The position numbers and the translations under genes are program-made. The notes below the pieces were generated by a model that was not told where the DNA came from, searched no databases, and saw only the letters and a program-made list of their open reading frames with translations. DNA of 64,000 bases. It comes from Escherichia coli. GTDB lineage: Bacteria; Pseudomonadota; Gammaproteobacteria; Enterobacterales; Enterobacteriaceae. Numbering within the stretch: position 1 is the first letter of the stretch; the number at the start of each line of letters is the position of its first letter. The DNA is taken from assembly GCF_003334385.1 (NCBI RefSeq), contig NZ_QOWN01000001.1; one strand, written 5' to 3'. Shown here one piece after another: positions 54,486 to 54,802 of the stretch.

Positions 54486-54560
54486 TCAAGGGCGGTGATC
54501 GACAATTTTGTTGTCAATATTGAACCATTTTGAGGTCACACATATATGTAAGATATTCAT
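54486..54560 (-). CDS. tnaC: tna operon leader peptide (24 aa, MNILHICVTSKWFNIDNKIVDHRP)
   Basis: Reverse complement of 54486..54560 reads ATGAATATCTTACATATATGTGTGACCTCAAAATGGTTCAATATTGACAACAAAATTGTCGATCACCGCCCTTGA, with Trp12 and C-terminal Pro24 directly before the stop. It is below the ORF-track length cutoff. Confidence 0.93.
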   Translation of the reverse strand: MNILHICVTSKWFNIDNKIVDHRP

Positions 54561-54635
54561 AATGCACTTATCCTCGCAAGACACGAGGCTACATTATTAC
54601 ACTCAGAGTTTTTGTCTATTCTGAAATTGTTTAAA

Positions 54636-54651
54636 TGTGAATCGAATCACA
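54636..54651. promoter_or_regulatory. CRP (CAP) binding site of the tna promoter
   Basis: Perfect palindromic half-sites TGTGA-atcgaa-TCACA, ~80 bp upstream of the tnaC ATG on the minus strand. Confidence 0.8.
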
Positions 54652-54802
54652 ATCGTTCGGGGAGCAATATTAAATGCTTTTTTTAAAGATTATAAATTAC
54701 GTAAGAATTTTAATGTTTAAAAAAAGGGTTGAGGAATAACAGGAGTGGTAACAATGAAGCGAAGCCGCATCTGACAGTCAGAATGCGGCTTCGTAAGCGC
54801 GG

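Follow-up and report, generated by a model that had tools for sequence, protein, structure and literature searches.

The window analyzed here, a 64 kb stretch of Escherichia coli DNA, carries on its minus strand the regulatory leader of the tnaCAB (tryptophanase) operon, and we are as good as certain that this leader works by Rho-dependent attenuation under the control of TnaC arrest. At its heart lies a 24-codon open reading frame (ORF), 54560..54486, which sequence comparison has confirmed to be the already known tnaC, a feature documented in full detail. TnaC is a classic model of nascent-peptide ribosome arrest, of metabolite sensing in the exit tunnel, and of Rho-dependent attenuation. 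Synthetic biology has since taken it up as a tryptophan biosensor (PMC12360218). The copy in our window is the K-12 allele itself and so adds no new biology. What it provides is a quality check only, in which a regulatory ORF of 24 codons, missed by length-filtered tracks, was recognized by a reader working without tools. Tryptophan-dependent arrest and Rho termination have been shown on the identical K-12 sequence (PMC12360218, PMC3299997, PMC8429421, PMC10941005, PMC8450073), and we rely on the literature for three properties that the window sequence would be expected to display: ribosome stalling, dependence on Rho, and dependence on CRP.

The tnaC reading frame

Read on the minus strand, 54560..54486 consists of 24 codons and a TGA stop, and its translation is MNILHICVTSKWFNIDNKIVDHRP. 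Trp12 is encoded by TGG at 54527..54525 and Pro24 by CCT at 54491..54489, with the stop TGA at 54488..54486; the sequence CCT-TGA (54491..54486) thus sets a proline codon directly before UGA, a stop codon read by RF2. Reading upstream, we found a GAGGA Shine–Dalgarno sequence (minus strand, 54571..54575) 10 nt before the ATG at 54560. The peptide matches the Pfam model PF08053 (Tna_leader) along its entire length (model positions 1–24 of 24; E = 1.1e-19, 69.6 bits) and scores 44.3 bits on the NCBIfam equivalog TIGR02616, whose curated cut-off is 23.55. Among solved structures, it matches TnaC chains from stalled ribosomes (6I0Y and 4UY8) and a TnaC-tagged fusion (5M6S). Trp12, Asp16, Ile19, and Pro24, the residues published as critical in TnaC (PMC3299997, PMC8429421, PMC10941005), are all found in MNILHICVTSKWFNIDNKIVDHRP, and the 11 residues that separate W12 from P24 give the canonical spacing.

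RefSeq, too, names these 75 nt tnaC, tryptophanase leader peptide (b3707, WP_001364348.1), and places the gene upstream of tnaA and tnaB. The same arrangement holds in the window, where tnaC is followed in the same orientation by the start of tnaA, 220 nt downstream, and then by tnaB. The preliminary description had put a 24-codon minus-strand ORF, with Trp12 and Pro24 before its stop, some 220 bp upstream of tnaA. Both residues do lie in frame at 54560..54486, as do Asp16 and Ile19, which that description had left unnamed, and the spacer measures exactly 220 nt. The same description had called the ORF invisible to the ORF track, which is fair: at the default threshold of 60 aa, the tnaC frame is unlisted, and when the threshold was lowered to 20 aa, it appeared only as a longer, 32-codon ORF with a GTG start (54486..54584).

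Identity with the K-12 leader

Alignment of the region with K-12 MG1655 (NC_000913.3, 3887900–3888900) found 1000 of 1001 bases identical. The sole difference is at window position 54128, where the window has G and MG1655 has T. The change is synonymous: it affects the third base of codon 46 in tnaA (GTG or GTT, both Val). The window thus stems from a very near relative of MG1655, not from the reference record. Since the only substitution falls inside tnaA, the promoter, the CRP site, tnaC, and the whole spacer are the K-12 reference allele; the unbroken match reaches from mnmE to the tnaA start, and the two TnaC peptides share one protein accession, WP_001364348.1. Alignment with the published tna leader had been proposed at the outset as a check, with loss of Trp12 or Pro24, or a shift of frame, named as the differences that would count against the assignment. 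None of these is present, both residues are in frame, and the leader is identical to that of MG1655. With the region identical to K-12, the RefSeq annotation in agreement, and the published mechanism agreeing with the earlier account, the identification as the tnaC leader holds.

We also searched complete E. coli genomes with a 621-nt query spanning the leader (54820..54200, minus strand). It matched in 5420 of 5426 genomes, every time on the chromosome, and the annotated features beneath the matches were mnmE, tnaC, and tnaA. In 791 of the matching genomes, less than 80% of the query was covered, partly through upstream replacement of the island type. In a strain with 100% identity, RefSeq tnaC maps to window 54560..54486 and the tnaA start to 54265; the neighboring genes there are rnpA, yidD, yidC, and mnmE upstream, and tnaB and mdtL downstream.

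The promoter and its CRP site

The initiation of tna transcription is under catabolite control via CRP/cAMP (PMC5748587, PMC3299997, PMC8429421). The perfect CRP palindrome that had been claimed upstream of tnaC, TGTGAATCGAATCACA, sits where it was said to be, at 54636..54651. Nowhere else in the window does TGTGAN6TCACA occur; chance predicts 0.08 matches in 64 kb, and shuffled sequences gave one or more matches in 8 of 100 cases. The palindrome is unchanged in seven E. coli sequences, and in an island-bearing strain conservation extends upstream only as far as this site. The distance from its center down to the tnaC ATG is 83.5 nt; reckoned from the candidate start site given below, the spacing would be that of a class I promoter (about −60).

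The core promoter is harder to pin down. It probably occupies 54591..54618 on the minus strand, with hexamers that we read from the sequence: a −35-like TAGACA (54618..54613) and, as alternative −10-like candidates, AATAAT (54598..54593) or TAATGT (54596..54591). Transcription would then start near 54582–54586, within an interval bounded by about 54590 and the Shine–Dalgarno sequence. A sigma-70 consensus scan found no promoter match on the minus strand, as expected of a CRP-dependent promoter; given that negative result, we treat the core hexamers and the start site as candidates. A literature search on the tna transcription start, the position of CRP, and a TorR site turned up nothing useful.

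This part of the leader also varies between strains. The presumed −10 region reads GTAATAATG in K-12 and the window vs ATTATACTG in most of the strains sampled. The variant promoter positions are 54594, 54598, 54600, and 54606..54610, the block just upstream of the −10 varies too, and a further variable position, 54577, lies between the start site and the Shine–Dalgarno sequence. Variation in the −10 region beside an invariant CRP site suggests that basal promoter strength could be lineage specific.

Selection on the TnaC peptide

To the window we aligned five strains taken from down the identity ranking (97.3% to ~95% over the 621 nt) and one island-bearing strain; variable sites were scored on the window and the five strains, whereas invariance of the peptide was judged on all seven sequences. 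Variable sites numbered 16 in the 151 nt of intergenic DNA upstream of the CRP site (10.6%), none in the 16-nt palindrome, 10 in the 75 nt of promoter and 5′ UTR (13.3%), 6 in the 75 nt of tnaC (8.0%), and 18 in the 220-nt spacer (8.2%). The run 54481..54435, directly 3′ of the tnaC stop, showed no variation in this sample. At the level of DNA, then, tnaC is about as variable as the spacer, and yet the TnaC peptide is identical in all seven E. coli sequences. Five of the six tabulated tnaC sites are synonymous third positions (F13, I15, N17, K18, and H22), and at the sixth, two strains have the stop codon TAA in place of TGA. One more synonymous change, at V20, is found in the island-bearing strain, bringing the silent sense-codon substitutions to six out of six, while 8–13% of sites vary in the surrounding noncoding DNA. 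A 24-codon frame that changes only silently amid freely varying DNA bears the mark of translation into a peptide with a constrained sequence, and on this comparison of sequences TnaC is shown to be under purifying selection.

It is worth asking how else this frame might be read. The surrounding DNA is AT-rich and intergenic, chance ORFs of 20–40 codons are plentiful nearby on both strands, and a short ORF alone proves nothing; the 24 codons could on these grounds be an untranslated accident and the region merely a long 5′ UTR of tnaA. But an accident would not be expected to match two curated TnaC models at full length and far over threshold, to be identical to peptide chains seen within stalled ribosomes, to have GAGGA 10 nt upstream of its ATG, or to confine its sense-codon substitutions to synonymous ones while the DNA around it changes freely. 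The substitution pattern, together with structures in which the translated peptide has been solved, appears to refute a chance origin, to which we give a vanishingly small probability. A subtler question is where the frame begins. The ORF finder's 32-codon version, 54486..54584, would have the true leader ORF start at the GTG at 54584 instead of the ATG at 54560. Against this longer peptide, the Pfam model aligns to residues 9–32 only, which are the ATG-started 24-mer; RefSeq and K-12 both annotate the ATG start; GAGGA (54575..54571) would sit within the extension, downstream of the GTG; and the GTG itself lies at or beside the probable transcription start. We consider the GTG start extremely unlikely and take TnaC to be the 24-residue peptide that starts at 54560.

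The spacer, the rut site, and Spot 42

With the tnaA ATG at 54265, the tnaC–tnaA spacer runs from 54266 to 54485 on the minus strand (220 nt), and it is here that Rho-dependent termination is reported to take place (PMC12360218, PMC3299997, PMC8429421). Scanning composition along the leader RNA, we found one clearly C-rich, G-poor stretch, at 54452..54511 (minus strand; C 21, G 9 in 60 nt), with a core at 54480..54451 (C 12, G 5). We take it to be the Rho utilization (rut) site. The stretch takes in the final codons of tnaC, reaches across the stop codon, and continues some 35 nt into the spacer. Also astride the end of the frame is a boxA-like element, CGCCCTTGA, picked up by pattern matching at 54486..54494 (minus strand), where it overlaps the stop and the two sense codons before it. 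We presume that CGCCCTTGA at 54494..54486 is the tna boxA; Konan and Yanofsky, in 2000, reportedly found (going by their title) that boxA and a rut site act in the tna leader. The published rut site directly adjoins the tnaC stop codon (PMC12360218, PMC8429421, PMC10941005). The preliminary description had cast the entire spacer as the Rho-dependent attenuator, and this needs trimming: termination is reported to occur further downstream, in the spacer, but the rut signal is discrete, lying across the stop at 54511..54452 rather than filling the whole 220 nt.

Could the spacer instead act mainly as a structured RNA, whether as a riboswitch or as an intrinsic attenuator of the trp-leader kind, rather than an attenuator worked by Rho and ribosome occlusion? 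Its minimum free energy is slightly better than that of shuffled sequences (−49.1 vs −40.9 ± 4.3; z = −1.9), which makes it weakly more stable. However, the first 80 nt after the tnaC stop, where the RNA is C-rich and rut-like, are nearly unstructured (−9.2 kcal/mol), and a consensus terminator scan found no hairpin with a T run resembling an intrinsic terminator between tnaC and tnaA. An Rfam search of 53800..55200 matched no family, even at E <= 1, which places the leader outside the catalogued structured RNAs and fits a mechanism based on a peptide and Rho. The published termination, moreover, is Rho dependent (PMC12360218, PMC3299997). A spacer governed mainly by RNA structure strikes us as very improbable. 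Composition, folding, and the terminator and Rfam results together fit a rut site that a ribosome halted at the end of tnaC would cover, but not an attenuator that works by switching hairpins.

A published target of the small RNA Spot 42 also lies in the spacer (PMC5748587). Complementarity and the account in that paper point to AGCCAAACCGATTA (minus strand, 54447..54460) as the likely pairing tract. Comparing K-12 spf with the leader, AGCCAAACCGATTA is complementary to Spot 42 nt 50–64 (UAAUCGGAUUUGGCU), with one bulged U, although the exact register is one that we infer from the two sequences. Judged by the printed primer, this is the tract replaced in the mut4 allele (PMC5748587). A whole-length RNAduplex calculation of Spot 42 against the leader returned an unrealistic 98-nt duplex, and we dropped it in favor of direct reading of the 14/15-nt tract. 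The tract lies inside the rut region, toward its 3′ end, which raises the thought that Spot 42 might act partly by altering access of Rho.

How the leader would work

None of our results goes against the published mechanism, which, transferred to the coordinates of the window, would run as follows. CRP–cAMP bound at 54636..54651 would activate transcription on the minus strand, and a ribosome would translate the 24 codons of tnaC while RNA polymerase moves ahead into the 220-nt spacer. What happens next would depend on free tryptophan. When it is scarce, RF2 would release TnaC at UGA, the ribosome would depart, and the exposed C-rich rut segment would load Rho, with termination before tnaA; in the published account, the rut site by the stop codon is exposed at low tryptophan, and Rho terminates transcription at a paused polymerase ahead of tnaA (PMC12360218, PMC8429421, PMC10941005).

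[quoted passage not shown] Pro24 and Arg23 would then block RF2-mediated hydrolysis of TnaC-tRNAPro at the peptidyl-transferase center: Pro24 is reported to displace U2585 and residue 23 to clash with the GGQ loop of RF2, leaving TnaC-tRNAPro unhydrolyzed (PMC8429421, PMC8450073). The stalled ribosome would cover the rut site and allow read-through into tnaA and tnaB, in keeping with the finding that the arrested ribosome blocks Rho and that both genes are transcribed (PMC12360218, PMC3299997).

Related leaders

Like tnaC, the leader of the trp biosynthetic operon, trpL, has a short ORF, and its translation governs whether genes related to tryptophan are transcribed. There, tandem Trp codons sense charged tRNATrp, and alternative hairpins form at an intrinsic terminator. 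In contrast, tnaC contains just one Trp codon, responds to free L-Trp in the exit tunnel, and relies on Rho; neither a terminator hairpin nor an Rfam leader model was found in the tna leader by the terminator scan and the Rfam search. The logic of tnaC recurs in the leader of speF, whose peptide SpeFL is an ornithine-sensing arrest peptide with Rho-dependent attenuation (PMC12360218). In both systems, a ribosome arrested on a leader peptide in response to a small molecule conceals a rut site and keeps Rho from terminating transcription (PMC12360218). Peptide and ligand are different, however, the SpeFL sequence is unrelated to the tnaC ORF, and the release factor blocked is RF1 according to the literature, as opposed to RF2 for TnaC.

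A common variant of the stop codon

The window and K-12 end tnaC with TGA, but two of the aligned loci (L006 and L007) have TAA, the change falling at the equivalent of 54487. The TAA stop comes with a linked G-to-A change 5 nt downstream, at the equivalent of window 54482. A 75-nt query carrying TAA had an exact match in 1720 of 5390 complete genomes, so that ~32% is a lower bound on the frequency of this allele. TnaC arrest blocks RF2, whereas RF1 releases TnaC efficiently (PMC8450073). As UAA is read by RF1 as well as RF2, and RF1 is efficient on TnaC, the UAA allele might be less inducible by tryptophan.

We therefore entertain, as a tentative idea and one that we think somewhat unlikely to prove right, that the tryptophan threshold for indole production differs between the UGA and UAA alleles; in the same tentative spirit, and as a separate matter, Spot 42 could work partly through changed access of Rho. 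Both ideas may already have been published.

The regulated genes and their surroundings

The first of the regulated genes, tnaA, encodes tryptophanase (minus strand, 52850..54265; 471 aa, WP_001295247.1) and has the Shine–Dalgarno sequence AAGGA at 54277..54273, 7 nt upstream of the ATG at 54265. A mechanical call of the start at ATG 54280 (476 aa, MKDYVMENF...) was rejected because the annotation and the Shine–Dalgarno sequence favor ATG 54265 and the 471-residue protein. The second, tnaB, encodes a low-affinity tryptophan permease (minus strand, 51512..52759).

On the other side of the leader, the consensus scan reported one terminator-like site, 54842..54821, which lies inside mnmE. Directly after the mnmE stop on the minus strand is a perfect 10-bp inverted repeat, GAAGCCGCAT...ATGCGGCTTC (54762..54793), with a 12-nt loop and without a following T run. 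This repeat, absent from the output of the terminator scan, is probably the hairpin at the 3′ end of mnmE.

Some strains have had this neighborhood rearranged. In strain PRO_A-1505-6W-A_ESBL (locus L008, 1..1500), a gene for a type III effector toxin of the ShET2/EspL2 family stands upstream of tnaC, in place of the mnmE-proximal intergenic DNA; the breakpoint is at ~54653, and homology to the window picks up again some 2 nt on the upstream side of the CRP palindrome. In strain E70 (locus L010, 519..1216), an IS1 element lies between tnaC and tnaA, inside the spacer, and strain AH62 has an IS1 in the tna leader, with no tnaC annotated under the match. With IS1 in the leader, tnaA should be uncoupled from control by TnaC and Rho.
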